Shown: piece by piece, positions 21,206-31,193 of the stretch
How the letters are laid out: each line of letters begins with the position of its first letter
Position numbering within the stretch: the first letter of the stretch is position 1
Origin: Fibrobacteria bacterium
GTDB lineage: Bacteria; Fibrobacterota; Fibrobacteria; UBA11236
Reading direction: 5' to 3'
NCBI GenBank assembly: GCA_043732185.1
Contig: JAYTHY010000049.1
Span: 1 to 35,384 of the forward strand
DNA: 35,384 bases
Program-made: the position numbers and the translations under genes
The notes under the pieces: generated by a model
Databases searched by the model: none
Seen by the model: only the letters and a program-made list of their open reading frames with translations
Told to the model about the DNA's origin: nothing

Positions 21206-21958
21206 ATGAAATACCCGGATGTCCTCAAAGCATTTGTCGTGAGATTTCCGAAAGTTTTAGGATTTTTGGAGTGGAGTGGGATAAAACGGGATTCGGAGGT
21301 TTCCACATTTTTTAAGCACGTGCACAAAGGAGACATTGTTTTTGACATTGGCGCAAATGTGGGCCGATTCACGAAACTTTTTTGCATGCTCACGGGTTCA
21401 GGTGGAAAAGTTATTGCCTTTGAACCTGTTTCAATTAACTTCAACAAGTTGACTCAGCTCGATTTTAAAAATCTAGTCGTTTATAAATTGGCACTTTCTG
21501 ATCAATCTGGAGAGTCGACGCTTTACTATCCTCCCACTGATGGCGCCCAAGCCTCCATGGTCAAACAAACATTCGGAAACTGGCGGACTAGTGTTACCGT
21601 GGGTGAAGAGATTTGCGAAATGGATTATTTGGACGGCTTGATGGAAACCAAACAATTGCCCATTCCCGATTTCATAAAAATCGATGCAGAAGGCGCTGAG
21701 CTTAGAATATTGAAGGGTGCCAACAAATTACTGATGAGCGGTTCTATAACTGTTTTTCTGGAATTGAATACGGAGACCTTGAAGTCCTTTGGAATTTCTC
21801 TGGGCCAAATTTGGGACTTATTGCACTCTTACGGGTATACAGTTTTCACTCTGGTAGCCAGAAAGTCGGCTTTCAGAGTCGAAACGCAATTGGATTTGGA
21901 ACGTGGTGTGGCACAATATTTTTCCCCCAATTTGCTGTGCCAAAAAACAAAAAAGTAG
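21206..21958 (+). CDS. FkbM family methyltransferase
   Basis: VFDIGANVG, VIAFEP, ALSD, PDFIKIDAEGAELRILKGA. Confidence 0.92.
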   Translation: MKYPDVLKAFVVRFPKVLGFLEWSGIKRDSEVSTFFKHVHKGDIVFDIGANVGRFTKLFCMLTGSGGKVIAFEPVSINFNKLTQLDFKNLVVYKLALSDQSGESTLYYPPTDGAQASMVKQTFGNWRTSVTVGEEICEMDYLDGLMETKQLPIPDFIKIDAEGAELRILKGANKLLMSGSITVFLELNTETLKSFGISLGQIWDLLHSYGYTVFTLVARKSAFRVETQLDLERGVAQYFSPNLLCQKTKK

Positions 21959-21968
21959 TCTTCGCCTC

Positions 21969-24026
21969 ATGCAGTACTTATTAACTTCGGTATGCTCCTT
22001 ATTCGTTTTGGTTTTCGGTTCCGTTCCTATTGCCTGTTTTTGTGCCCAGAAAAACAATAGCGGCGTATCCTTTGAGAAGAGCGCTGGAAAGCTATTAGCC
22101 TTTTTGACATGCTGGTGTTTTATTGAAGTTTCCTTGGCCATTCTACTCGCTTGCACTGGTTTATTTTCCAACACCATTTCCGTATTGGCCCATCTTGGAT
22201 TGTTTACGGTGGGAATATTTTTATTCCTCGGTAATGGCGGTGTGCTCCTGAGTTTGAGAGACAATACAAGCAATATTAAAATCTCGAAAGTGACCTGGAT
22301 TCTTATCATTCTGTTTTCATTCACTTCACTTCGTTTTTTGTGGAACACGGTTATCTGGCCAACCGTGGAAATCGATTCTCTGAGCTACCACCTTCCTTTG
22401 CTAGCCAAACTTGTGCAAACCGGAAAAATATCTTTCCTAAACCATTATTGGTTTCAGGAACATTATCCACGTCATTGGGAAACGCTGTGCAGCCTTTTCG
22501 CGCTACCTTTCAAAAACGACATGTTCATTCTTTTTCCCAATTTGCTGGCGCGAGTTGTGTTTGCCGTCTCCATAGTAGCCCTGGCTGTTAAGGCCGGTGT
22601 GACTGCTCATCGGGCCATGGCTTCGTCTTTTTTGATTTGCACTATACCGATTATTAATGGTCATATGGAAACCATGAATGTGGATGTACCCTTTGCAGCA
22701 TTTTTTCTGTCGGCTCTGTATTTTTCTTTAGTTTTTTCGGAAACCGGTTCCTGGTCGTACGGTTTTTTATTCGCCATGTCACTGTCCCTATTTATGGGAA
22801 TCAAAAGCACGGGAACACTTTACGGGCTACTGTTGATTGTAGCTATGGTATGGGTGCGCAAGGGAAGAGTGTTTCAAATGAATAAATTAGGTGGACTGGG
22901 TTGGGCGATAGCAGGACTGTTTCTGATTCCAGGCCTGTTTTGGTATGTATTCAATCTGGTCCGATTCGGTAATCCAATGGTTGGAGTACAAATATCCTTT
23001 GCCGGCCATGTTCTTTTTCCTGGATACTATGACCTTGCGCACTTTTCCAACTTGACCTTGCAGCATGTGTTTCATCCTCTTCGCAATGGGGATATCCAGT
23101 TTCTGTTTCATGAAATGTTTTGGGAACTGTCTTTTGGATTTCTTGCAATCGCAGTATTTGCGGTGGTTTTCCTGGTCGATTGTGTTGTCCGGTTCAAGGC
23201 TTTTATCAAGTCGCCATACTCCCCACTCTATTTCATTTTGAGCTGTGGGGCATTGCTCATTTATTACCGAACACCTTTTTCCGGCACTTACAATCCCAAT
23301 GTGAATGCTATGTCCTCGTTTGTAGGGCAAGCTTTTCGGCTAGGGTTTCCTTTCATCGGATTGGTTGCTGTTTTAGGTGCGGTTGGGATGCAAAAATTGA
23401 AAATTCCGGATGGGCTTTTAATGACGCTTGCTTTAGGGATTTATTTTATTTCGAGTAGTAATCATGGAATACCCCGTTTATTTACCAGTGCGGTAATGAT
23501 CATAGTTCTTCTATGGAAATCAGATGCTCTTACACGATTGACCAATTTTGTTATTCAAAAACGAGGATTCTTTTTGATCGTGACAGGTTTCGTTCTTCCG
23601 CTGTTGCTGCTCATCGCTTATTCCCCTCTTGAGGTGACAAGAAACAAGAATCGATTCAAGCGATCGTATGGACCCTTGGTGGATTATGTGGATCACAACT
23701 TGAAAAATGACGACGTGATCGCTTTTCCTATATCGGAAGCCAGCTATATTTTTTGTGGTTCGCATTTTTCCCATTCCGTTTTATATATCCCGTTTCTGCA
23801 TTCCGACTTTCCAGGTTGGGTCAACGCGCTTCGACAAAATAATGTGTCCATCATCGGTATAGGACCTTCCACCGTTGGAACGGAATATGAAACAATCCGT
23901 GCACTCTTAGCTGGTTCACCGGACACCTTCGAGCCCTTATTTGCCACAGCTCCTGGAATGGAACAAGCGCTTTTTCGGCTGAAATTGAGGACCATTGATC
24001 GGAAGCTTGAACAAACCTTACGGTAG
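21969..24026 (+). CDS. Polytopic membrane protein, GT-C (ArnT/PMT-like) glycosyltransferase-like
   Basis: Many TM segments; first-loop DSLSYHLP, YP, NVD, GIKSTG, WYVFNL..FGNP and R.GFP motifs. Starts 10 nt after the FkbM stop. Confidence 0.65.
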   Translation: MQYLLTSVCSLFVLVFGSVPIACFCAQKNNSGVSFEKSAGKLLAFLTCWCFIEVSLAILLACTGLFSNTISVLAHLGLFTVGIFLFLGNGGVLLSLRDNTSNIKISKVTWILIILFSFTSLRFLWNTVIWPTVEIDSLSYHLPLLAKLVQTGKISFLNHYWFQEHYPRHWETLCSLFALPFKNDMFILFPNLLARVVFAVSIVALAVKAGVTAHRAMASSFLICTIPIINGHMETMNVDVPFAAFFLSALYFSLVFSETGSWSYGFLFAMSLSLFMGIKSTGTLYGLLLIVAMVWVRKGRVFQMNKLGGLGWAIAGLFLIPGLFWYVFNLVRFGNPMVGVQISFAGHVLFPGYYDLAHFSNLTLQHVFHPLRNGDIQFLFHEMFWELSFGFLAIAVFAVVFLVDCVVRFKAFIKSPYSPLYFILSCGALLIYYRTPFSGTYNPNVNAMSSFVGQAFRLGFPFIGLVAVLGAVGMQKLKIPDGLLMTLALGIYFISSSNHGIPRLFTSAVMIIVLLWKSDALTRLTNFVIQKRGFFLIVTGFVLPLLLLIAYSPLEVTRNKNRFKRSYGPLVDYVDHNLKNDDVIAFPISEASYIFCGSHFSHSVLYIPFLHSDFPGWVNALRQNNVSIIGIGPSTVGTEYETIRALLAGSPDTFEPLFATAPGMEQALFRLKLRTIDRKLEQTLR

Positions 24027-24095
24027 AATTGAAATGAAAAAATTTTATGCCGGCCTTGTCCCTCTCTATGCATAATAAGTACTTTGAATGCCAGC

Positions 24096-24410
24096 ATGCT
24101 GGTATTTAGTCGGGCAACACATCCAATTATTCGAACGATGGACAAGCTCATCGCATCCGGTTTGATTGTGTATTTGATTGCAATCATTGGTGTTTTTGCT
24201 CCCATTCATAAACATGGCGATTCCCATGGCGCGCATGTCCACGCGGACTGCCAACTTTGCCAAGTCAGTTCCGAATCGGTTACGGCTTCTGTGGGCGGTT
24301 TTGAATTCAAGGCGTACCATACGTTCAGCCCTTTGCTAGTGCAGCGTCTGGAGCCCTGTCTGATTAGCCGTCATGGGTGCTCCGCTTCCCGTGGTCCGCC
24401 TTCCGTCTAA
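24096..24410 (+). CDS. DUF2946-like (CruR/CutF-like) metal-responsive leader / arrest peptide
   Basis: Hydrophobic segment, His cluster HKHGDSHGAHVH, CQLC, C-terminal SRGPPSV. Start is 24096 or 24138. Confidence 0.75.
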   Translation: MLVFSRATHPIIRTMDKLIASGLIVYLIAIIGVFAPIHKHGDSHGAHVHADCQLCQVSSESVTASVGGFEFKAYHTFSPLLVQRLEPCLISRHGCSASRGPPSV

Positions 24411-24529
24411 ATCGAGTTCAACGAAGACAGTAATCCGCGAACGCTATTCTTGGTAGCGGACGAACTGGCACTATTCAAAAATTGGATCCCTTTCAATTTC
24501 CTTCGTTCACTGTTATTCCAGGAGCTTTA

Positions 24530-25600
24530 ATGCGTAGTACGTCGTTTCGCACACAGCGACATATGCTGTTGCTGTCCCTAGCCCTCCCTTTTTGCCTTTG
24601 TGCAGGGATTACCAATCCAGACCTTTCTGCCATTGGCCAGGTGTTAGGCGGGTATACAAATGAGTCCGCCAATACGGATAAAAATGAACCCACGCTGAAA
24701 TTGGGAGAAGCAGAAATTGTTCTTGATGCCTACCTCAATCCCTTCTTTAAAGGTCTTTTGACGTTATCGGGTAATCCGGACGGCATTGGACTTGAAGAAG
24801 CCTACACCACAATGGTCAAAGGACTCCCTTGGGGACTGAGATTGAAAGCGGGCAAGTACCGATTGGGATTCGGAAAGATCAATGAGAGCCATCCCCATGC
24901 GTATCCATTTATTGCGCCACCCAGAAGTTTGGTGGCCTTGTTACCGGGAGGAGCGGATGGATTTAATGAAACCGGCATTCAGGTTTCAGAGTTGCTGCCG
25001 ACGCCGGGCGATTGGGCTTCAACGGTGAGCGTGGATTGGATCGAAGGTGCGCAGTTTCACCCAGGTCAGGATGGGTCCCATTTGGGTTGGCTAGGACGTT
25101 GGTCGAATAGTTTTCTCTTGGGTGAATCAAATGCTTTAGAGATGGGAGTTTCCGCTGCTTCTGGTGACGATTTGGTTAAGCAGAATGAAAAGGCCACGAT
25201 CTGGGGCGGTGATGCGAAAGCAAAATTCTATTTGCCTGGGGCGTCGCAAATTACACTTCAGGTTGAAGGGATACTGAACCAAGGCCATGTAGTAGACACG
25301 ACGGTTCCCGCATCTATACAAATCCAACGACAAAATCGATCTGGACTTGTGGCGCTTGCCGACTATCGGTATCACACGCAGTACAATGGAGGGATTTTAT
25401 TCGAACAATGGGAAAATCCTGGTGTTTCCTCCACGACGGACCGCGCTTATCGGGTCTTTCTTGGTTATGCCGTTCTGGAAGAAAGCACCCTACTACGACT
25501 TGTCTATGAACATTTTCAACCCGAAGTGGGCGAGGCCGTCAACACCGTGTCGCTCCAGCTTTTATTCAGCATGGGACCACACAAAGCCCATCAATTTTAA
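24530..25600 (+). CDS. Outer-membrane beta-barrel protein associated with metal (Zn-type) uptake
   Basis: GGAG RBS; signal peptide; NPDLSAIG, EAEIVL.A.LNPFF, LEEAY, FGKINESHPHAYPF; C-terminal GPHKAHQF. Confidence 0.75.
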   Translation: MRSTSFRTQRHMLLLSLALPFCLCAGITNPDLSAIGQVLGGYTNESANTDKNEPTLKLGEAEIVLDAYLNPFFKGLLTLSGNPDGIGLEEAYTTMVKGLPWGLRLKAGKYRLGFGKINESHPHAYPFIAPPRSLVALLPGGADGFNETGIQVSELLPTPGDWASTVSVDWIEGAQFHPGQDGSHLGWLGRWSNSFLLGESNALEMGVSAASGDDLVKQNEKATIWGGDAKAKFYLPGASQITLQVEGILNQGHVVDTTVPASIQIQRQNRSGLVALADYRYHTQYNGGILFEQWENPGVSSTTDRAYRVFLGYAVLEESTLLRLVYEHFQPEVGEAVNTVSLQLLFSMGPHKAHQF

Positions 25601-25636
25601 ACTTAAACCAGCCACTGGCTAACGAAAGAAATCAAA

Positions 25637-26536
25637 ATGAAAGTTGTATCTCAATGTATTATAGTCCCACTTGCATGGGTCTCTCTAGTCCTCATGCCCG
25701 TTTCAGCCAAAATAAAAATTGCGGCTTCTCTCCCGGATTTGGCTTCCATTGCCGCCACTGTGGGTGGAAGTGAGGTCGACGTTTTTTCGATTGCAAAATC
25801 CAACGCTAATCCACATTTTGTAGAAGTCCTACCCTCCTATATGATTAAAGTATCGCGCGTTGCCATTTATCTCAAGGTCGGCATGTCTCTGGACCAATGG
25901 GCAGATGCGATTATCGAAGGCTCTCGAAACGGGAATATCGATGTGGTAGACTGCTCCGTTGGAATTGATGCATTGGAAAAACCTACAGGAAAAGTGGACG
26001 CATCCATGGGTGATGTCCATCCTCAGGGAAATCCTCACTATTGGCTGGACCCGGCCAATGGGCCCGTTATTGCAGAACGCGTGCGTGCGGCATTAACAAA
26101 GGTGGATCCGGGCCATGCAACTTTATATGCCGACAACGCCAAAAAATTCTCAGAAGAAACCACCCAAAGAATGACGGATTGGAAATCCAAAATGTCTAAG
26201 ATAAATGGGTCGGCCATTATTACCTATCACTCTTCCTGGGTGTATTTCACCAAAGCATTTGGGCTTCGAATCGTTGGCTATGTGGAACCTTTTCCCGGCA
26301 TACCTCCAACAGCCAAACATTTACAAGAATTGGTGGATCGCATTAAAACCGAAAAGGCTGGAATCTTGATCCAAGAGCCTTACTATGGGGATAACGATCC
26401 GAAGTTCCTGGAACGGCAAACCGGTATCAAAGTTTTTCGGTTTACCCCTTCCTGTGAAGGCGTAGGCGCTGGAGAATATCTCAAACACTTCGATGGCATT
26501 ATCAATTCCTTGTCGAGTGCAGGGGGTAAGCAATGA
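25637..26536 (+). CDS. Metal ABC transporter substrate-binding protein (ZnuA/MntA/TroA family)
   Basis: NPHF, GDVHPQGNPHYWLDP, ITYHSSWVYF, EPFPGIPPT..HL. Confidence 0.92.
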   Translation: MKVVSQCIIVPLAWVSLVLMPVSAKIKIAASLPDLASIAATVGGSEVDVFSIAKSNANPHFVEVLPSYMIKVSRVAIYLKVGMSLDQWADAIIEGSRNGNIDVVDCSVGIDALEKPTGKVDASMGDVHPQGNPHYWLDPANGPVIAERVRAALTKVDPGHATLYADNAKKFSEETTQRMTDWKSKMSKINGSAIITYHSSWVYFTKAFGLRIVGYVEPFPGIPPTAKHLQELVDRIKTEKAGILIQEPYYGDNDPKFLERQTGIKVFRFTPSCEGVGAGEYLKHFDGIINSLSSAGGKQ

Positions 26537-27354
26537 TGATCCTTTCCTATCCCTTCACTCTTTCAGCGCTTACGCTCTGTTTGCTCTTGACGAGCGTCCT
26601 TAGTTTTTTCGGCTACCATGTGGTGCGACGAGGCGTTATTTTCGTGGACTTGGCCTTGGCGCAAGTAGCTGCCCTTGGCGCCAGTATCGGCATAATGCTG
26701 GGCTGGGGTGAGCAACATCCGACGGGTAATTTCATGTTGTCCTTGGCCTTCACCTTGCTCGGCGCCATTTTGTTTTCTTGGTTTCGCAATCGATCCAAAC
26801 TTCCCATTGAAGCCTTGATCGGCGTCACCTATGCCGGAGCCATGGCTTTTTCCTTGATAGTCCTGGAGAAAAGCGCCACCGGTTCAGAGGAACTGAAAGA
26901 AATGCTGGTCGGATCGATTTTAACTGTATCGCCATCAGCTTTGCGTTTGGCCGCAGTGTTGGCAATCGGCATTGGCGTGTTGATGTGGTTGGCTCGTAAA
27001 CCATTGTTTATGGTAACGGATGACGCCCAGGCAGCTAAAGGCAAGGGCCTAAAAATCTGGTTTTGGGATTTTCTTTTTTATACGGCATTTGGTGTCATTG
27101 TTACCTTTTCTGTGCGGGTAGCCGGAGTCTTGCTGGTTTTCGCTTTCCTAATCGTGCCCTCATTGGCTTCTATTTTGGCGCTTAATGGGACATGGCGCAG
27201 AATAGGCTTTGGTTGGGCGTTTGGCGCAGTGGGTTGCGTTTTAGGCTTAGAAGGCGCTTTGAGGTTGGACTGGTCAGCAGGACCCTGCATCGTGGCCACT
27301 TTTATTCTCTTACTAGTAGCCGTTGGGTTATTTACCAAATTGCGTGGTCGGTAA
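26533..27354 (+). CDS. Metal ABC transporter permease (ZnuB/ABC-3 family)
   Basis: HVVRRGVIFVDLALAQVAALG, EALIG, LVGSILTV, SVRVAGVLLVFAFLIVP; ATGA overlap with the binding-protein gene. Confidence 0.9.
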   Translation: MMILSYPFTLSALTLCLLLTSVLSFFGYHVVRRGVIFVDLALAQVAALGASIGIMLGWGEQHPTGNFMLSLAFTLLGAILFSWFRNRSKLPIEALIGVTYAGAMAFSLIVLEKSATGSEELKEMLVGSILTVSPSALRLAAVLAIGIGVLMWLARKPLFMVTDDAQAAKGKGLKIWFWDFLFYTAFGVIVTFSVRVAGVLLVFAFLIVPSLASILALNGTWRRIGFGWAFGAVGCVLGLEGALRLDWSAGPCIVATFILLLVAVGLFTKLRGR

Positions 27355-27355
27355 T

Positions 27356-30300
27356 TCAGAAGGAATTTGGGATGAGTGACCAAGGCGTGAAGGTCACCTT
27401 CCCTAAACTTACATCGTCGCTCCAGTCACGGATGCGGGTGTCGACGTTTACTGTACTGGCTGCACCGCTCCAGTAACAATTCAAGGCGTTGAATCCGAGC
27501 GGCGTTCGATTTTCCAAGTCGTATGTCACATTGTTTACGAAATTGCTGCCTGTCATGGACAAGTTTGAAAAGTTCCTGACGAATACTCCGATATCAAAGT
27601 TTTTTACTTCACTGGAATCAAATGTTGTTGTACCTGAAACACTGTTTCCATAGTAGCCGGTAATTTCTAGCCCCATTCCCGTGCCGGCGCCGGAAAACTT
27701 GGCTTTGAAAAGATCCCCGCAGCCGATTTTCACTAGGGGAAGAGTAGATGCGAAAGAGAGCGCCGTTGAACCGATGTTAACTTTGGATTTAGGGAGATCC
27801 ACTACGGTGTTGTTTAAGGTGCATCCCCAAAAAGCCACAGGCCCTTCCGGTGAAGCACCCATGCCAACGGGCGAAGGAACACCCGCTTCCTTGAAAGTCG
27901 ATGAAGTGAGCGTTGTATTCCAAATTGTGAATGTCGAACCGTCGTCGCAGAGCAAGAAAGAGGTATTTGTAACTGAACTGCTGTCCACTTTGATTCCAAG
28001 GTTTAAATTGCTCGACTGGACTGTAGAATTGTTGATTATTGCGGAAATTATCTCGATGAGGATTCCTGTCCCATTTCCGGTCACCGTAAGGGAATCCATT
28101 AGCGTACGGCGTAGCAATAGTTTGGACGGGCCGGAGATGGCTTCTGCCGTAATTTTATTTTTAAGGAATGTGGCGTCATAGACGGTGAGGGTACCAGAAT
28201 TTTGGGTAGGTCCTGCGCCTAAACCATTGTTGCCTATTTGAAGCCCCTCGGGAGCGGATAACATCGCATACCCGATATGTGAATTGGACAAGTTGGATCC
28301 CTCGAATCTCAATGGCGATGCAATGTTCACCGAATCGGCAGCAATGCCAACAGCCGTGAGGCTACCCCCCTTGACCAAAATGGTGTACGGTCCTGAGATA
28401 CTGACTCCCGCACTGAATACTAAATCCACACCGTTAGGTACTACCAAGTCAGCCGTCAAAACATAAGGATTCATGGATTTATAAAAAGTGGTGGAACTTG
28501 ATAAAGTACCACCCACATAGGAAACCGCATGCACTAACAAGGTATCCACGACAAAATTACTGTCATCGTCCCTAACGCCGAATAGGACGGTGCGCGTACC
28601 ACCCTGCGAGACAGTGAATGTTGTGGTGGGGCTGGTGGTGCTTGAATCGTCCCAGGAGCCGTTGTCTTGCCAGTCCCATTTGTACATCACTACAGTTCCG
28701 AAATTTTGAGTTGCACTGCCGGTTAGGGTAAGTGATTGACCTACTCCAATGGTCGTATCCCTTCCTGCGGAAACTGCTGGTGCATCCTTTACCACATTCA
28801 CTACCATGATATCTTTTCCAACTTGGCCGTCGTCGTCAACGACACGCAGGGAACAAATTAATGTAGTAGCCACCTTTGGAGCAATTATTGTGGTGTCTCC
28901 ACTGGCGGCGATTCGGAAAGTGCCAGTGGCGCCTATGTCCCAGGCCCGCTCTACAATGCTGCCGTATACATCAGTACCTTTGCCACTCAGGTGAATGGTG
29001 TCGCCAATGGATACGGTCGTGTCCACACCTGCAAAAGCAGTTGGGGTATCCTTTAAAACCGTGATGATCACCGTATCTACACTTACATTGCCATCGTCAT
29101 CGGTGACCCTTAATATACAAGGCCAGGATGCCGCTGGGATTGATGGAGCCGTGACAATGGTGTCACCCTTGGAGACAGATTTGAAAGTCCCAGTGCCACC
29201 TAAATCCCAAGCCCAAGCGACTATGGTTCCGTATTTATCCGTGCCGTTTCCATGGAGTCGCACCAAGTCTTTGATGGACACGGTGGTATCTTTTCCAGCG
29301 GTGGCTACAGGCGCATCTTTAATTACAGTAACCTTAATGCTGCGTTCGGTGTAATCATTATCGTCATCCGTAACGCGAAAAACTGCGGTGTAGACTCCAA
29401 TCTTTGCATAACTATACACGGGAGCAAAGGGCTTGGTGGAGGTTGAATCCAGTGTTCCATTGCCGTCAAAGTCCCACCCATATCCAATTAATGGCCCGTC
29501 GATGTCCGAACCAGACCCGGTGAATTGGATGGGGTCATTGATGGTCACTGTCGTGTCCGCGCGCACGGCATTGACAACGGGAGATTGATTAATAATATCT
29601 ACTCGACGAAAGTCCGAAGATTCGTTTCCGTCATCGTCCCGCACTTTGAGTCTTGCGAGATAGGATGAGGCGTGATTGTAAACATGTGACACCTGACCCG
29701 TGGTGGAGGAATCGTCAAAGACATCGTCCCCGTCAAAGTCCCATAAATACTGGACTATGCTGCCAAAGGTTTGCGTGGCGGAACCTAAAAAATAAATTTT
29801 GGTATGAATAGGTGCGGCTGTGTCCGGCCCGGCATTGGCCATTGGAGCATCAGTTACATATCGAACGGAAAGACTGTCCCACCATAAAGCGCCTGCCTCG
29901 TCCGTGGCGGCGACATAAATAGTTTGCTTGGTTGCCTTTGTGTTGCTAACAATCACGCTGTCTTTACCAACTTGAGTGGATTCATTTTTAGTTGCGATAG
30001 GAACGCTCTTGTTGTCCGCGTAAAAAACTAATTTGACAATTCTGCGTGTTGGATTGGACCAGGAAGTCGAAACAGTAACAGAGTCACCGATACTCGCAGA
30101 ATCACCGCTTAGGCCAGCGGTTTTCCAGGCGAAAGAGGTGCGGACTTTGGTTGGCGAGGGTGCCTTTATAGTTATTGATTTGGAATAATTGGAGCTTAAG
30201 GTATTGGTTATATCCTGCGATTTTAAACAGTAGGTATATTCCTTGTTTGTAGAATCAAGTGTTGAAGAAAAAAGGGCATCAAGATAAGTGGTATCTTTGA

Positions 30301-31153
30301 CCAAAGCCCCGCCCAAACGCGTTGGAAGAGTAATCGTTGGCAGTGTACGGTACAAAACGTAGCCGGCCAAATCATCCACCTTTACTTTGCGCCAACGCAA
30401 TGTGGCTTTGCCTGTAAGCGTGTCGTAGGTAACTTGGAGGGCAACTGGTGCGGGAGGGGGAAAGGCTGGATCGGCTTCTAATTCACGCGTCAACAGTTTA
30501 GAGGTTTCTTCAGTTTTGACAACAATTCCGGTATCCTGGGTCGTTTTGAATCCGGTTTTCCGATAGGTGACACTATAGTTACCTAGTGGAATGCCGGATA
30601 GAGTGAAGAGGCCAGAATCCGAAGACTCGGAAAAATAGGAAGTGCCGGGAACGTAACATAGAACACCATTGCTGTCGCCTTCTCCGTATAATACTTTGCC
30701 AGAAATCTTGCCGGGTGCCCGCATGGTTATGGTGTTCAATTGAAGTAAGCTTCCTACGCCTTCGTACTGAACACGCTTCATAAAAAAGACCCATTTACCA
30801 TTGCCGAAATTGCTTTGAATATTATATGAACCGGGGACAAGGTTACTGAAAACGAATAGACCAGTACTGTCGGTATGTGCTGAATCTCCACTGCTTTGGA
30901 CCACCATTCCCGTTTTTAACAAAGGTTCATCGGTTTCCAAGTTGGCTTTAACAACGGCGCCCTTTACAGGTGTACCCTCTGGATCAATCAGGATTCCTAC
31001 CAAGCCTTTAGTTGGCTTTCCCTTCCCGCTATCCATGGGGTTGAGATCTTTACCATTGGGGTCGGTTACATTTTTTCCAGTACAAGCATGGACAATCAGG
31101 ATTAGCGTTGCTGCTGCAATTCCTCTTCCGAAGATTCTCAAGTAAGCGCGCAT
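27356..31153 (-). CDS. Large surface lipoprotein: carboxypeptidase-regulatory-like, Fn3-like and five PKD-like domains, then a C-terminal beta-helix-like region
   Basis: Lipobox LIVHA-C; repeats beginning DAP.A.AG.DT with WD(F)DG.G and V.DDDG(N/Q). Start at MRAYL (31153) preferred over 31165. Confidence 0.82.
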   Translation of the reverse strand: MRAYLRIFGRGIAAATLILIVHACTGKNVTDPNGKDLNPMDSGKGKPTKGLVGILIDPEGTPVKGAVVKANLETDEPLLKTGMVVQSSGDSAHTDSTGLFVFSNLVPGSYNIQSNFGNGKWVFFMKRVQYEGVGSLLQLNTITMRAPGKISGKVLYGEGDSNGVLCYVPGTSYFSESSDSGLFTLSGIPLGNYSVTYRKTGFKTTQDTGIVVKTEETSKLLTRELEADPAFPPPAPVALQVTYDTLTGKATLRWRKVKVDDLAGYVLYRTLPTITLPTRLGGALVKDTTYLDALFSSTLDSTNKEYTYCLKSQDITNTLSSNYSKSITIKAPSPTKVRTSFAWKTAGLSGDSASIGDSVTVSTSWSNPTRRIVKLVFYADNKSVPIATKNESTQVGKDSVIVSNTKATKQTIYVAATDEAGALWWDSLSVRYVTDAPMANAGPDTAAPIHTKIYFLGSATQTFGSIVQYLWDFDGDDVFDDSSTTGQVSHVYNHASSYLARLKVRDDDGNESSDFRRVDIINQSPVVNAVRADTTVTINDPIQFTGSGSDIDGPLIGYGWDFDGNGTLDSTSTKPFAPVYSYAKIGVYTAVFRVTDDDNDYTERSIKVTVIKDAPVATAGKDTTVSIKDLVRLHGNGTDKYGTIVAWAWDLGGTGTFKSVSKGDTIVTAPSIPAASWPCILRVTDDDGNVSVDTVIITVLKDTPTAFAGVDTTVSIGDTIHLSGKGTDVYGSIVERAWDIGATGTFRIAASGDTTIIAPKVATTLICSLRVVDDDGQVGKDIMVVNVVKDAPAVSAGRDTTIGVGQSLTLTGSATQNFGTVVMYKWDWQDNGSWDDSSTTSPTTTFTVSQGGTRTVLFGVRDDDSNFVVDTLLVHAVSYVGGTLSSSTTFYKSMNPYVLTADLVVPNGVDLVFSAGVSISGPYTILVKGGSLTAVGIAADSVNIASPLRFEGSNLSNSHIGYAMLSAPEGLQIGNNGLGAGPTQNSGTLTVYDATFLKNKITAEAISGPSKLLLRRTLMDSLTVTGNGTGILIEIISAIINNSTVQSSNLNLGIKVDSSSVTNTSFLLCDDGSTFTIWNTTLTSSTFKEAGVPSPVGMGASPEGPVAFWGCTLNNTVVDLPKSKVNIGSTALSFASTLPLVKIGCGDLFKAKFSGAGTGMGLEITGYYGNSVSGTTTFDSSEVKNFDIGVFVRNFSNLSMTGSNFVNNVTYDLENRTPLGFNALNCYWSGAASTVNVDTRIRDWSDDVSLGKVTFTPWSLIPNSF

Positions 31154-31163
31154 GGACGGTTTC

Positions 31164-31193
31164 ATTATAAAGGTGGAATGTTCATTTTGTCCA
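31164..31193 (-). promoter_or_regulatory. Sigma70-type promoter for the lipoprotein gene
   Basis: Minus strand TGGACA-N18-TATAAT. Confidence 0.5.

Follow-up and report, generated by a model that had tools for sequence, protein, structure and literature searches.

A candidate CruR-like arrest leader, probably zinc-responsive, ahead of a porin–ZnuA–ZnuB operon in Fibrobacterota

Known arrest leaders and the present locus

The closest described systems are regulatory nascent peptides, which we summarize from those sections of the cited papers that deal with them. In CruR (Bp2923) of Bordetella pertussis, a CXXC motif is followed by 45 amino acids, a RAPP motif and three further amino acids, the spacing being 45 ± 1–2, and mutations in RAPP and CXXC lead to a loss of expression or of Cu control (Roy et al. 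2022, PMC9426467). RAPP and RGPP cause a strong arrest that EF-P does not relieve, CruR itself arrests in vitro, and upstream ORFs (uORFs) of this type are enriched before TonB receptors and Cu-related genes (PMC12992588). In an in vitro experiment on the ADR1a domain, Zn-dependent folding of a His2Cys2 domain released a SecM stall (Nilsson et al. 2015, PMC4571824).

We analysed a window of 35,384 nucleotides from a Fibrobacteria bacterium (UBA11236; assembly GCA_043732185.1, contig JAYTHY010000049.1), whose 4.46-Mb genome is estimated to be 100% complete. An earlier note on this DNA had proposed that it encodes a leader peptide in which CruR-like logic is applied to a new class of target. Profile searches, motif conservation and operon context argue for that reading. 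We put a probability of about 0.6 on the leader being a regulatory arrest leader of the CruR/CutF (DUF2946-like) kind that controls a porin–ZnuA–ZnuB operon, probably in response to Zn.

Like CruR, the leader is a small ORF opening a metal-uptake operon, with an N-terminal export or transmembrane (TM) signal, an invariant CxxC, a spacer of fixed length (43 residues, compared with 45 ± 1–2), an R-A/G-P-P motif 2–3 residues before the stop codon and a long intergenic region (IGR; 119 nt, compared with 162 nt in CruR) (PMC9426467). Unlike CruR, the peptide in the window falls below every Pfam threshold, has an extra conserved HxH...HxD ahead of the CxxC, and precedes a porin and a ZnuA/ABC-3 importer, where CruR precedes a TonB receptor and a PepSY protein. 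The two also differ in that Fibrobacterota is absent from the phyla named in section 10 of PMC9426467, that the metal here is probably not Cu, and that the C>G skew of the window IGR is weak whereas the CruR mechanism is Rho-dependent.

CutF of Rhodobacter capsulatus, a DUF2946 protein, resembles what is proposed for the leader: it is exported as a nascent chain, has a Cys motif and, near its C-terminus, a proline-rich stall site, and exerts post-transcriptional control over the next gene (10.1101/2022.11.11.516240; 10.1101/2025.02.05.636593). However, CutF has CXXXC and PPP where the leader has CxxC and RGPP. Its stall is metal-induced and EF-P-dependent, and melts a stem-loop that masks the Shine–Dalgarno (SD) sequence so that a detoxifying enzyme is switched on; the leader, in contrast, heads uptake genes, and a folding test gave no support for SD unmasking. 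What the leader has in common with ApdA, ApdP and the uORFs catalogued by Fujiwara et al. 2025 is an R-A/G-P-P close to the C-terminus in a small uORF for a secretory or membrane product, although ApdA and ApdP monitor Sec, unlike the role proposed here (PMC12992588). Neither zinc nor Fibrobacter occurs in the main text of that paper, and the searched parts of its supplements contain neither 'zinc ABC transporter' nor 'metal ABC transporter substrate-binding'. The ADR1a–SecM experiment is a precedent for the proposed mode of sensing, as Zn bound by a nascent His2Cys2 domain close to the tunnel exit pulls on, and releases, a proline-dependent arrest. It differs in being an artificial fusion with an optimum tether of 24–26 residues, compared with 46 in the leader (C55 to Pro101), and in the order of the ligands, which is Cys-Cys...His-His in ADR1a and His-His...His...Cys-Cys in the leader (PMC4571824).

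Architecture and conservation of the leader

The features of the locus are collected in Table 1, with leader residues numbered from ATG 24096; the other candidate starts are TTG 24084 (108 aa) and ATG 24138 (90 aa). The hydrophobic segment, His cluster, CQLC and RGPP described in the earlier note are all present, as is the 119-nt distance to an operon for an outer-membrane protein (OMP) and ZnuA- and ZnuB-like proteins. RGPP is not strictly terminal as described there, and the spacer, given as roughly 40 residues, is exactly 43. The head reads H38-K-H40...H49-A-D51-C52-Q-L-C55. Every row of a leader alignment contains the hydrophobic segment, for which we infer an N-in/C-out orientation by the positive-inside rule. 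An AlphaFold2 (AF2) model of the leader has three helices, one of them covering residues 10–37, with pLDDT 90–94 across residues 11–30.

Table 1. Coordinates of the candidate leader and the operon behind it, as positions in the window
Feature	Position	Strand	Basis or detail
Leader ORF	24096..24410	+	104 aa from ATG 24096; TAA stop 24408-24410
Hydrophobic TM/export segment, residues 18-37	24147..24206	+	Sequence; N-terminus ahead contains R/K
Candidate metal-binding head, H38-x-H40...H49-x-D51-C52-Q-L-C55	24207..24260	+	Conservation in 37 sequences
43-residue spacer, CxxC to RGPP	24261..24389	+	Fixed length, poorly conserved sequence
Candidate arrest motif, R99-G-P-P102	24390..24401	+	R, P, P invariant in relatives
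S-V tail (2 residues) and stop codon	24402..24410	+	Sequence
119-nt intergenic region	24411..24529	+	3' part G-poor, pyrimidine-rich; AGGAG before ATG 24530
Porin-like outer-membrane beta-barrel, 356 aa	24530..25600	+	AF2 model and Foldseek
Periplasmic metal-binding protein of the ZnuA family (cluster A-I), 299 aa	25637..26536	+	PF01297, E 2e-46
ZnuB-like metal permease of the ABC-3 family, 273 aa; closes the conserved unit	26533..27354	+	PF00950, E 2.4e-33

The combination of motifs is more than chance, because it is fitted by a single frame in the genome. Among the 29,433 stop-to-stop frames of at least 60 aa in the whole 4.46 Mb, eight carry R[AG]PP within their last 14 residues, and only the leader ORF adds a CxxC exactly 43 residues upstream.

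Within the genus, relatives of the leader occur in 13 of 14 genomes, or in 12 of 13 when the unpublished G011 is set aside; across the phylum they are found in 46 of 296 Fibrobacterota genomes and 20 of 70 genera. Ahead of the homologous operons CxxC and R(A/G)PP show no variation and are always 43 residues apart, in 15/15 genus/family ORFs and in 13/13 phylum-level ORFs, the latter found with a pattern that permitted 35–55. Across 37 leader sequences C52, C55, R99, P101 and P102 never vary, and conservation is at least 90% at H38, H40 and H49; motif position 100 is A or G, rarely S. The mean frequency of the top residue is 0.65 in the head, 0.29 in the spacer and 0.94 in R[AG]PP. The tail after the motif is two residues long in 14 of the 15 genus/family ORFs (four in L013), and 1–10 residues at the phylum level.

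The substitution pattern indicates that the peptide is under purifying selection. Of 10 pairs computed (an 11th, of unequal length, was left out), the six that are gap-free have dN/dS of 0.17–0.39; the other four range from 0.37 to 1.04, three of them unreliable owing to unaligned indels in the His loop.

Relationship to DUF2946

The window ORF has no Pfam match at E<=1 and no match to the DUF2946 profile, PF11162, at E<=10, and a six-frame search of its own genome with PF11162 returned nothing. The profile does match 18 of 20 close relatives at E<=10 (best 5.3e-5) and 22 of 37 phylum-wide relatives at E<=0.01 (best 2.3e-5), with no other family recurring and with the matches spanning the part of the model from the CxxC to the C-terminus. 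These relatives score below or near the gathering score of 23.7 bits, and a weak single match means little, as at E<=1 the profile also matches 9 of 14 control genomes. A precomputed PF11162 match exists for 5 of 59 database relatives. The search for DUF2946 suggested in the earlier note is thus positive for the relatives and negative for the window ORF itself.

The traits of DUF2946 that the leader displays are the CxxC, the C-proximal R(A/G)PP, the TM segment, the position as first gene and the long intergenic distance, and its spacing of 43 lies at the edge of the CxxC–RAPP range given in PMC9426467 (45, within one or two). On these sequence grounds we file the leader as a divergent, CruR-like relative of DUF2946 outside formal Pfam membership.

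Operons behind the leader

The first gene behind the leader has no Pfam or NCBIfam family match. Its AF2 model is an all-beta barrel (pLDDT 80.8) for which Foldseek ranks Omp32, OprP and OmpF-type porins highest (E 5e-10, TM about 0.6), and H121, H123 and H351 are invariant. The genes for the substrate-binding protein (SBP) and permease that follow are the sole PF01297 gene and the sole PF00950 gene of the genome, and the operon encodes the only cluster A-I metal ABC importer of the organism. A convergent gene from 27356 adjoins the permease gene. The operon thus has the SBP and permease of a ZnuABC-type system without a dedicated ATPase: it contains no ABC ATPase gene, and the ZnuC-like ATPase of a related locus finds only generic ABC ATPases, 30–34% identical, in the window's genome. 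In four phylum-level leader loci an ABC_tran gene lies inside the operon.

The leader is the first gene at every locus. It precedes porin–ZnuA–permease genes in 10/10 genus/family loci, and among 17 distinct phylum-level leaders 10 stand before porin–ZnuA genes, 6 before a TonB receptor (with ExbB/ExbD/TonB) and 1 before another gene. Two operon types are therefore headed by the leader, porin–ZnuA–(ATPase)–permease and TonB receptor–ExbBD–TonB, and flanking genes show no synteny in any of 30 leader loci. The different target class proposed in the earlier note is borne out against the targets named for CruR homologues in the passages of PMC9426467 that deal with them, being a porin with a ZnuA/ABC-3 importer here, with TonB receptors at paralogous loci.

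Which metal is sensed

Cluster A-I SBPs with three His and an acidic residue bind Zn and those with His2-Glu-Asp bind Mn or Fe, with exceptions. In the SBP of the operon H60, H128, H134, H198 and E247 are invariant, with H60, H134, H198 and E247 as the candidate ligands. Its best PDB sequence match is the Mn-binding MntA, the Glu of which aligns with His198; the same residue aligns with His in 6r3z. In the alignments the second and third matches, 6r3z and 6ru4, which we take to be an Fe(II)-binding protein, have His at the third ligand position. In NCBIfam the window SBP comes closest to AztC, a Zn protein, scoring 93 bits where the cut-off is 350. AztC is the best NCBIfam match, below cut-off, for all six SBPs scanned, and the Mn protein MntC is the second. 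One leader-associated TonB receptor has ZnuD as its best match, at 5e-37, compared with 5e-7 for the copper receptor, again below cut-off.

Provided that the device works at all, Zn(II) is the most likely metal, although we place the odds only slightly above even. That the genome, estimated as complete, has no other ZnuA/ABC-3 system also speaks for Zn. That the metal is not copper is plausible on circumstantial grounds: the three-His site of the SBP, the sub-threshold AztC and ZnuD matches and the added HxH...HxD in the head. The earlier note had already expected a metal different from Cu. All of the family matches lie below curated cut-offs.

A leader of the same CruR-like type could instead sense copper, Mn, Fe(II), Ni or Co, which we consider unlikely. 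Its sub-threshold homology is to a family in which the members studied so far, CruR and CutF, are Cu-responsive (PMC9426467; 10.1101/2025.02.05.636593), CxxC is a classic Cu(I) motif and is recognised as Cu-binding in PMC9426467, and the MntA and MntC matches of the SBPs would fit Mn. However, the Cu-linked families named in section 10 of PMC9426467 do not include ZnuA/ABC-3 importers, and the terms ZnuA, ABC-3 and zinc were not found in its text and supplements; nor do the sections of that paper on DUF2946 describe the HxH...HxD of the leader as conserved. The third ligand position of the SBP is His and not Glu, and the one associated receptor scores far higher against ZnuD than against the copper receptor.

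Proposed mechanism

In the model that we favour, with a CruR-like arrest leader probably responding to Zn, the ribosome translating the leader would arrest at R99-G-P-P102; going by CruR and ApdA (PMC12992588), Pro101 would occupy the P site and Pro102 the A site. The TM segment would then lie 64–83 residues, and the His/Cys head (H38–C55) 46–63 residues, from the peptidyl-transferase centre, so that the fixed 43-residue spacer would bring the head to the tunnel exit or slightly past it. Because CruR and the leader both head uptake genes, the expected logic is that metal relieves the arrest and turns the operon off. Without metal the arrest would persist and the parked ribosome would keep the operon on, either by keeping Rho from loading or terminating within the 119-nt IGR, for which CruR is the precedent, or by holding the mRNA open, or both. 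Metal bound to the head would make the nascent chain fold or compact and pull on the arrest motif, as in ADR1a–SecM; the released ribosome would finish and leave, and the uptake operon would shut off.

The fully specified version is more tentative, and we judge it possible but somewhat short of even odds: a zinc-sensing nascent chain whose His3/Asp/Cys2 head folds around Zn(II) at the tunnel exit or translocon and thereby releases the stall, shutting off the ZnuA/ZnuB importer here and a ZnuD-like receptor at paralogous loci. If true, this would be the first arrest peptide that responds to Zn. It would act phylum-wide at the post-transcriptional level, in place of Zur or alongside it, and would be a natural counterpart of the ADR1a–SecM experiment.

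Purifying selection on the peptide could also reflect a stable small membrane protein that aids the transporter, for instance as a periplasmic metallochaperone or an accessory subunit, with R(A/G)PP as a structural or interaction motif. The hydrophobic spacer of many phylum-level homologues resembles a second TM helix, which would suggest a membrane hairpin, and the three helices of the AF2 model and the lack of a predicted RNA switch linking the stall to the next gene (see below) are in line with this. We nevertheless regard it as improbable. A structural role leaves unexplained why the spacer is invariant in length yet free in sequence, why R(A/G)PP is held so strictly near the C-terminus and why two unrelated operon types, for an ABC importer and a TonB receptor, share the leader. 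Moreover, RAPP and RGPP are arrest-prone and counter-selected in proteomes (PMC12992588), and CruR is undetectable as a protein and predicted to be poorly structured (PMC9426467).

A leader that responds to membrane insertion or secretion in the manner of SecM/MifM, or to the periplasmic thiol-redox state through CxxC oxidation, rather than to metal is very improbable: although it has an N-terminal TM segment, Sec/YidC is what most of the known RAPP-type arrest peptides monitor (PMC12992588, PMC10987492) and the CutF model invokes disulfide formation and translocon pulling (10.1101/2025.02.05.636593), no Sec, YidC or Dsb gene lies downstream in any leader locus examined, and the conserved His and Asp around the CxxC point to metal ligation.

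Intergenic region and read-out

The IGR in the window contains no intrinsic terminator and no Rfam family or riboswitch, so neither competes as an explanation. The distance from leader to operon is 87–274 nt in 33 of 34 loci and 33 nt in the remaining one (L095).

SD unmasking by the stall, as in CutF or SecM, was considered as a read-out and gained no support. In a test that consisted of thermodynamic folding prediction with the footprint of the stalled ribosome forced to be unpaired, the mean predicted probability of an unpaired SD over 30 loci was 0.36 both with and without the footprint. The window locus gave 0.30 in both states, and the gain exceeded 0.1 in 4 of the 30 loci. RNAalifold found no consensus structure in the leader loci, and duplexes between post-stop and pre-SD segments were barely better for cognate than for non-cognate pairs (-9.8 vs -8.6 kcal/mol).

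Rho is encoded in the window's genome (a Rho_RNA_bind gene). The IGR has more C than G in 23 of 34 loci, a bias that is absent in distant loci. GC-rich relatives within the genus show a clear rut-like skew (C 32–42%, G 21–26%), and the window IGR a weak one (24% C, 19% G; +18% in the best 50-nt stretch). Two Fur-family regulators are encoded elsewhere in the same genome and could be transcriptional controllers of the leader operon.

A conserved leader ORF in a single reading frame

Nucleotides 24084-24410 of the forward strand read as a single open frame, which holds the leader ORF with its parts as listed in the table. The earlier note had made RGPP the C-terminus of the peptide; the motif is instead C-proximal, with S-V and TAA coming after it. 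The 119-nt gap between the leader stop and the next gene was confirmed, and the start codon of that gene, ATG 24530, is preceded by the Shine-Dalgarno (SD) sequence AGGAG.

Features of the leader and of the operon behind it, with the mean frequency of the top residue for four parts of the leader
Feature	Position	Strand	Description	Mean top-residue frequency
Leader ORF	24096-24410	+	ATG to TAA, 104 aa	
Leader N-terminus	before residue 18	+	short, contains R/K	
Hydrophobic (TM) segment	residues 18-37	+	20 residues	0.40
His/Cys head	residues 38-55	+	H38-K-H40-GDSHGAHV-H49-A-D51-C52-Q-L-C55	0.65
Spacer	between C55 and R99	+	43 residues	0.29
Candidate arrest motif	24390-24401	+	R99-G-P-P102 (R[AG]PP)	0.94
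Leader tail	to stop	+	S-V, then TAA	
Intergenic region	24411-24529	+	leader stop to OMP start	
OMP	24530-25600	+	porin-like protein	
SBP	25637-26536	+	ZnuA family	
Permease	26533-27354	+	ABC-3	

The possibility that the leader is a chance ORF is rejected by its rarity in the genome and by its coding conservation. We scanned the whole 4.46-Mb genome (completeness given as 100) and found R[AG]PP within the last 14 residues in 8 of 29,433 stop-to-stop frames of at least 60 aa; a single frame of the 29,433, the window leader, combines R[AG]PP with a CxxC exactly 43 residues upstream. By the Nei-Gojobori method, dN/dS was 0.17-0.39 in six gap-free pairs of leaders and 0.37 for L007-L018. The values for L008-L009 (1.04), L005-L006 (0.50) and L091-L092 (0.64) are unreliable because the His-loop lengths differ and the fixed window left them unaligned, and one more pair was left out for unequal length.

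A six-frame search located the leader in 13 of 14 same-genus genomes (12 of 13 without the unpublished genome G011), the sole genome without a match being 86% complete. With the leader alone as query, a word-indexed protein search returned only the leader itself, an exhaustive search of representative proteins returned six proteins, and profile searches with the leader family returned 59 and 28 proteins, nearly all unnamed. A scan of genome contigs gave ten loci, none additional to those from the genome searches, and a metagenome scan gave six. The 296 Fibrobacterota genomes include 46 with a match to a profile of 20 sequences; the matches reach 20 of 70 genera, and among the high-quality genomes they number 26 of 172.

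No sigma-70-type promoter was found by consensus scan of 23900-24700. Genus relatives have in common AAATGTAAGTTTATATT, which ends about 12 nt 5' of the leader ATG and lacks a Shine-Dalgarno sequence (80 nt upstream compared in 14 loci). Such a sequence points to a -10 element, with a 5' UTR that is very short or a transcript that is leaderless. At 24069-24076 the window carries TGCATAAT, 19 nt 5' of ATG 24096 and 7 nt 5' of TTG 24084.

A fixed spacer between the His/Cys head and R[AG]PP

The expectation that CxxC and R(A/G)PP would be conserved ahead of homologous operons held throughout. All 15 genus- or family-level ORFs have CxxC (always CQLC), exactly 43 residues and then R-A/G-P-P, with a tail of two residues in 14 and of four in one. 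At the phylum level, we searched 14 loci with a pattern that permitted spacers of 35-55 residues and found 13 ORFs in 12 of them; both motifs are present in all 13, with S also occurring at position 2 (RSPP in L066), the spacer is 43 residues in every case, and tails range from 1 to 10 residues. Across an alignment of 37 leaders, C52, C55, R99, P101 and P102 are invariant and H38, H40 and H49 are at least 90% conserved, with a consensus head of HHHxDGxxHxDCxLC. The 43-residue spacer is kept across sequences with only 16-44% identity to the window peptide. Its length is thus fixed while its sequence is free, and the spacer is therefore a ruler.

The spacer is strongly hydrophobic in many phylum-level homologues (L061, L062, L065, L075, L081, L084 and others) and polar in the window, at the same length; the hydrophobic version in distant homologues is likely to form a second TM helix. 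One contig carries tandem leader-like ORFs (L066:1174-1482 and L066:1913-2230), with RSPP and RAPP and a spacer of 43 in each.

Relationship to CruR and the DUF2946 family

CruR of Bordetella pertussis and CutF of Rhodobacter capsulatus, both Cu-responsive leaders, belong to DUF2946 (PF11162) (for CruR, PMC9426467). That paper places CruR 162 nt upstream of a TonB receptor gene, reports that RAPP mutations abolish downstream expression and that CXXC mutations abolish Cu control, and models Cu as relieving arrest, after which Rho-dependent termination follows (PMC9426467). A later paper describes arrest of CruR at RAPP in vitro, with RAPP and RGPP as the most robust EF-P-refractory variants (PMC12992588).

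The window leader itself has no Pfam match; its relatives do match DUF2946. At E ≤ 0.01, 22 of the 37 relatives match PF11162, the best at 2.3e-5, and matches to any other family occur in one member at most; in the set of 20, 18 match at E ≤ 10 (best 5.3e-5). Precomputed matches exist for 5 of 59 database relatives, and one source name is 'DUF2946 family protein'. Genome-level matches span model positions ~45-117, the part from CxxC to the end. Because a six-frame PF11162 search at E ≤ 1 also matches 9 of 14 control genomes, lone weak matches are not evidence, whereas recurrence across members is. The window peptide shares every architectural feature of the CruR/DUF2946 family but falls short of the profile threshold, and it is for this reason that we call it a divergent relative of the family, putatively CruR-like in its working.

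Operons behind the leaders

The order leader-OMP-ZnuA-permease is found in all ten genus- or family-level loci with enough flank. In the window, the SBP belongs to the ZnuA family (PF01297, E = 2e-46) and the permease to ABC-3 (PF00950, E = 2.4e-33), and they are the sole PF01297 and sole PF00950 genes of the genome. The OMP, of 356 aa, has no Pfam or NCBIfam family; its structural model is a beta-barrel (pLDDT 80.8) which, among PDB structures, matches porins best (Omp32, OprP and OmpF-type; E = 5e-10, TM ~0.6). In an alignment of OMP homologues His121 and His123, which form part of an HPHA motif, are invariant, as is His351, close to the C-terminal ...GPHKAHQF. All of these could possibly be metal-selective. 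The porin family, otherwise unannotated, also occurs in Bacteroidota clusters according to the Atlas.

No ATPase gene is present in the window operon, the next gene being a convergent one at 27356, and an ATPase gene is also missing from the operon in all ten genus- or family-level loci. A ZnuC-like ATPase query from L076 found only generic ABC ATPases, 30-34% identical, in the window's genome. The convergent gene (27356-31165) encodes a 1269-aa secreted-looking repeat protein, and 5' of the leader (21206-24026) lie genes for an FkbM-type methyltransferase and a 707-aa PMT_2-like membrane glycosyltransferase. Neither the 707-aa nor the 1269-aa gene has a homologue in any of 30 related loci. 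Two Fur-family regulator genes are found elsewhere in the genome (G000:C88:48010-48354 and G000:C59:74699-75082).

Among 17 distinct phylum-level leaders, ten precede an OMP homologue and a ZnuA-family gene, six a TonB-dependent receptor and one (L070) something else. Of the ten OMP-ZnuA operons, four encode both an ABC ATPase and the ABC-3 permease and four, like the window, the permease only; in L074 neither was seen in the fetched part of the locus. L082:918-5506 runs leader, OMP, ZnuA, ABC-3, second ZnuA, ABC ATPase and a further ABC-3-like match, which reads as a tandem pair of cluster A-I systems, with one ATPase, headed by a single leader. The TonB-receptor operons mostly continue with ExbB/ExbD/TonB genes, and where a genome carries two leaders, as in L075, one heads each operon type.

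Candidates for the sensed metal

To our knowledge, metal-sensing arrest peptides have so far been characterized for copper alone (CruR and CutF), and the CxxC motif together with these relatives points to Cu and against Zn. In the SBP, H60, H134 and H198 are invariant, as is E247, and H198 is aligned to the Glu ligand position of the Mn-binding MntA; three His ligands are the rule for Zn-binding proteins of this type, with exceptions. Against NCBIfam, the window SBP and five others all score best with AztC (Zn), every score being far below the cut-off. One leader-associated TonB receptor matches ZnuD at 5e-37 versus 5e-7 for a copper receptor model, below the cut-off, and the remaining four receptors gave weak matches to heme/transferrin-type models. 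The head offers three conserved His and one Asp in addition to the two Cys. If the device does sense a metal, this circumstantial evidence gives Zn slightly better than even odds.

Metal-responsive RAPP uORFs are already a known kind. What is new is a Fibrobacterota branch in which most members fall below Pfam thresholds and every named record but one among the profile-search matches is a 'hypothetical protein', its HxH...HxDCxxC head and invariant 43-residue ruler, the porin plus ZnuA/ZnuB as putative leader target and, probably, a shift of ligand. Standard annotation misses this branch, whose leaders have an extended His/Cys head and would control an ABC importer of zinc type that has a dedicated porin. 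A literature search turned up no relevant account of an arrest or leader peptide that responds to Zn, nor of a uORF ahead of ZnuA in Fibrobacter; it covered the supplementary tables of PMC12992588 in part, and Fibrobacterota uORFs may already be among their entries. Zinc goes unmentioned in the main text of that paper. If the ligand is Zn, the arrest-peptide paradigm reaches a second metal, and about 100 codons plus a 119-nt spacer would form a compact natural system for the conversion of ligand binding to force at the peptidyl-transferase centre. The 43-residue ruler is a clean, testable quantitative constraint. Zn regulons of uncultured phyla may be mis-predicted by Zur-box searches alone.

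Geometry at the proposed stall

At the stall, the nascent chain would be 101 residues long, with C55 lying 46 residues and the TM segment 64-83 residues from Pro101. An earlier study gives about 30 extended residues as spanning the tunnel (PMC4571824), which would put the head at the exit or past it; with a helical spacer, the head would sit in the vestibule. An AF2 model of the leader has helices at 53-63 and 72-93, at a pLDDT of only 57-75. Cytoplasmic sensing, as proposed for CruR, and translocon sensing, as proposed for CutF, are both possible with this geometry. The tunnel study also describes a His2Cys2 domain whose Zn-dependent folding close to the exit releases a SecM stall, half-maximally at ~1 µM Zn (PMC4571824).

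Possible read-out of the stall in the intergenic region

Because the downstream genes serve uptake, CruR polarity is the economical expectation: the apo-peptide would stall and turn the operon on, and metal would release the stall and turn it off. There is no Rfam family in 23800-24800, and a consensus scan of the plus strand in 23900-24700 gave no intrinsic terminator. Rho is encoded in the genome, and the intergenic regions of GC-rich genus relatives, at 32-42% C versus 21-26% G, are compatible with a rut site. The skew is weak in the window (C 24% versus G 19%), the best 50-nt stretch reaching +18% directly 5' of the SD, and the distant loci have no C>G skew.

A helix between the leader stop codon and a pre-SD block was rejected as a general mechanism, being convincing in 6 of 34 loci and absent from the window. 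In those six (L009, L007, L008, L011, L012 and L015), the stop codon plus 5-6 nt pairs over 8-9 bp with a block that lies 17-23 nt upstream of the following start codon. The helix is TGAACCGA/TCGGTTCA in three loci and TGAATCGA(T/A)/(A/T)TCGATTC in the others, and the changes between loci (C:G to U:A, U:A to A:U) are compensatory. RNAalifold found no pairs in 17 aligned regions from leader end to next start, in a MAFFT alignment that misplaced the pre-SD block, and cognate and non-cognate post-stop/pre-SD duplexes differed little (-9.79 versus -8.56 kcal/mol). Stall-dependent unmasking of the SD, as in CutF or SecM, was not supported: SD accessibility, computed once for the free mRNA and once with the footprint of a stalled ribosome kept unpaired, had a mean of 0.36 versus 0.36, the rise exceeded 0.1 in 4 of 30 loci, and the window was unchanged.

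In L018 and L091, a different post-stop segment, absent from the window, pairs with the SD itself (CTCCGG/CCGGAG versus CTCCAG/CTGGAG). In the genus intergenic regions, a conserved GTAAC...GTTAC hairpin (alignment columns ~220-260) precedes a (G)CATCCCTC block that lies about 45 nt upstream of the OMP start. In the same place, at ~24455-24505, the window has GCTA..TAGC and GGATCCCTTTC.
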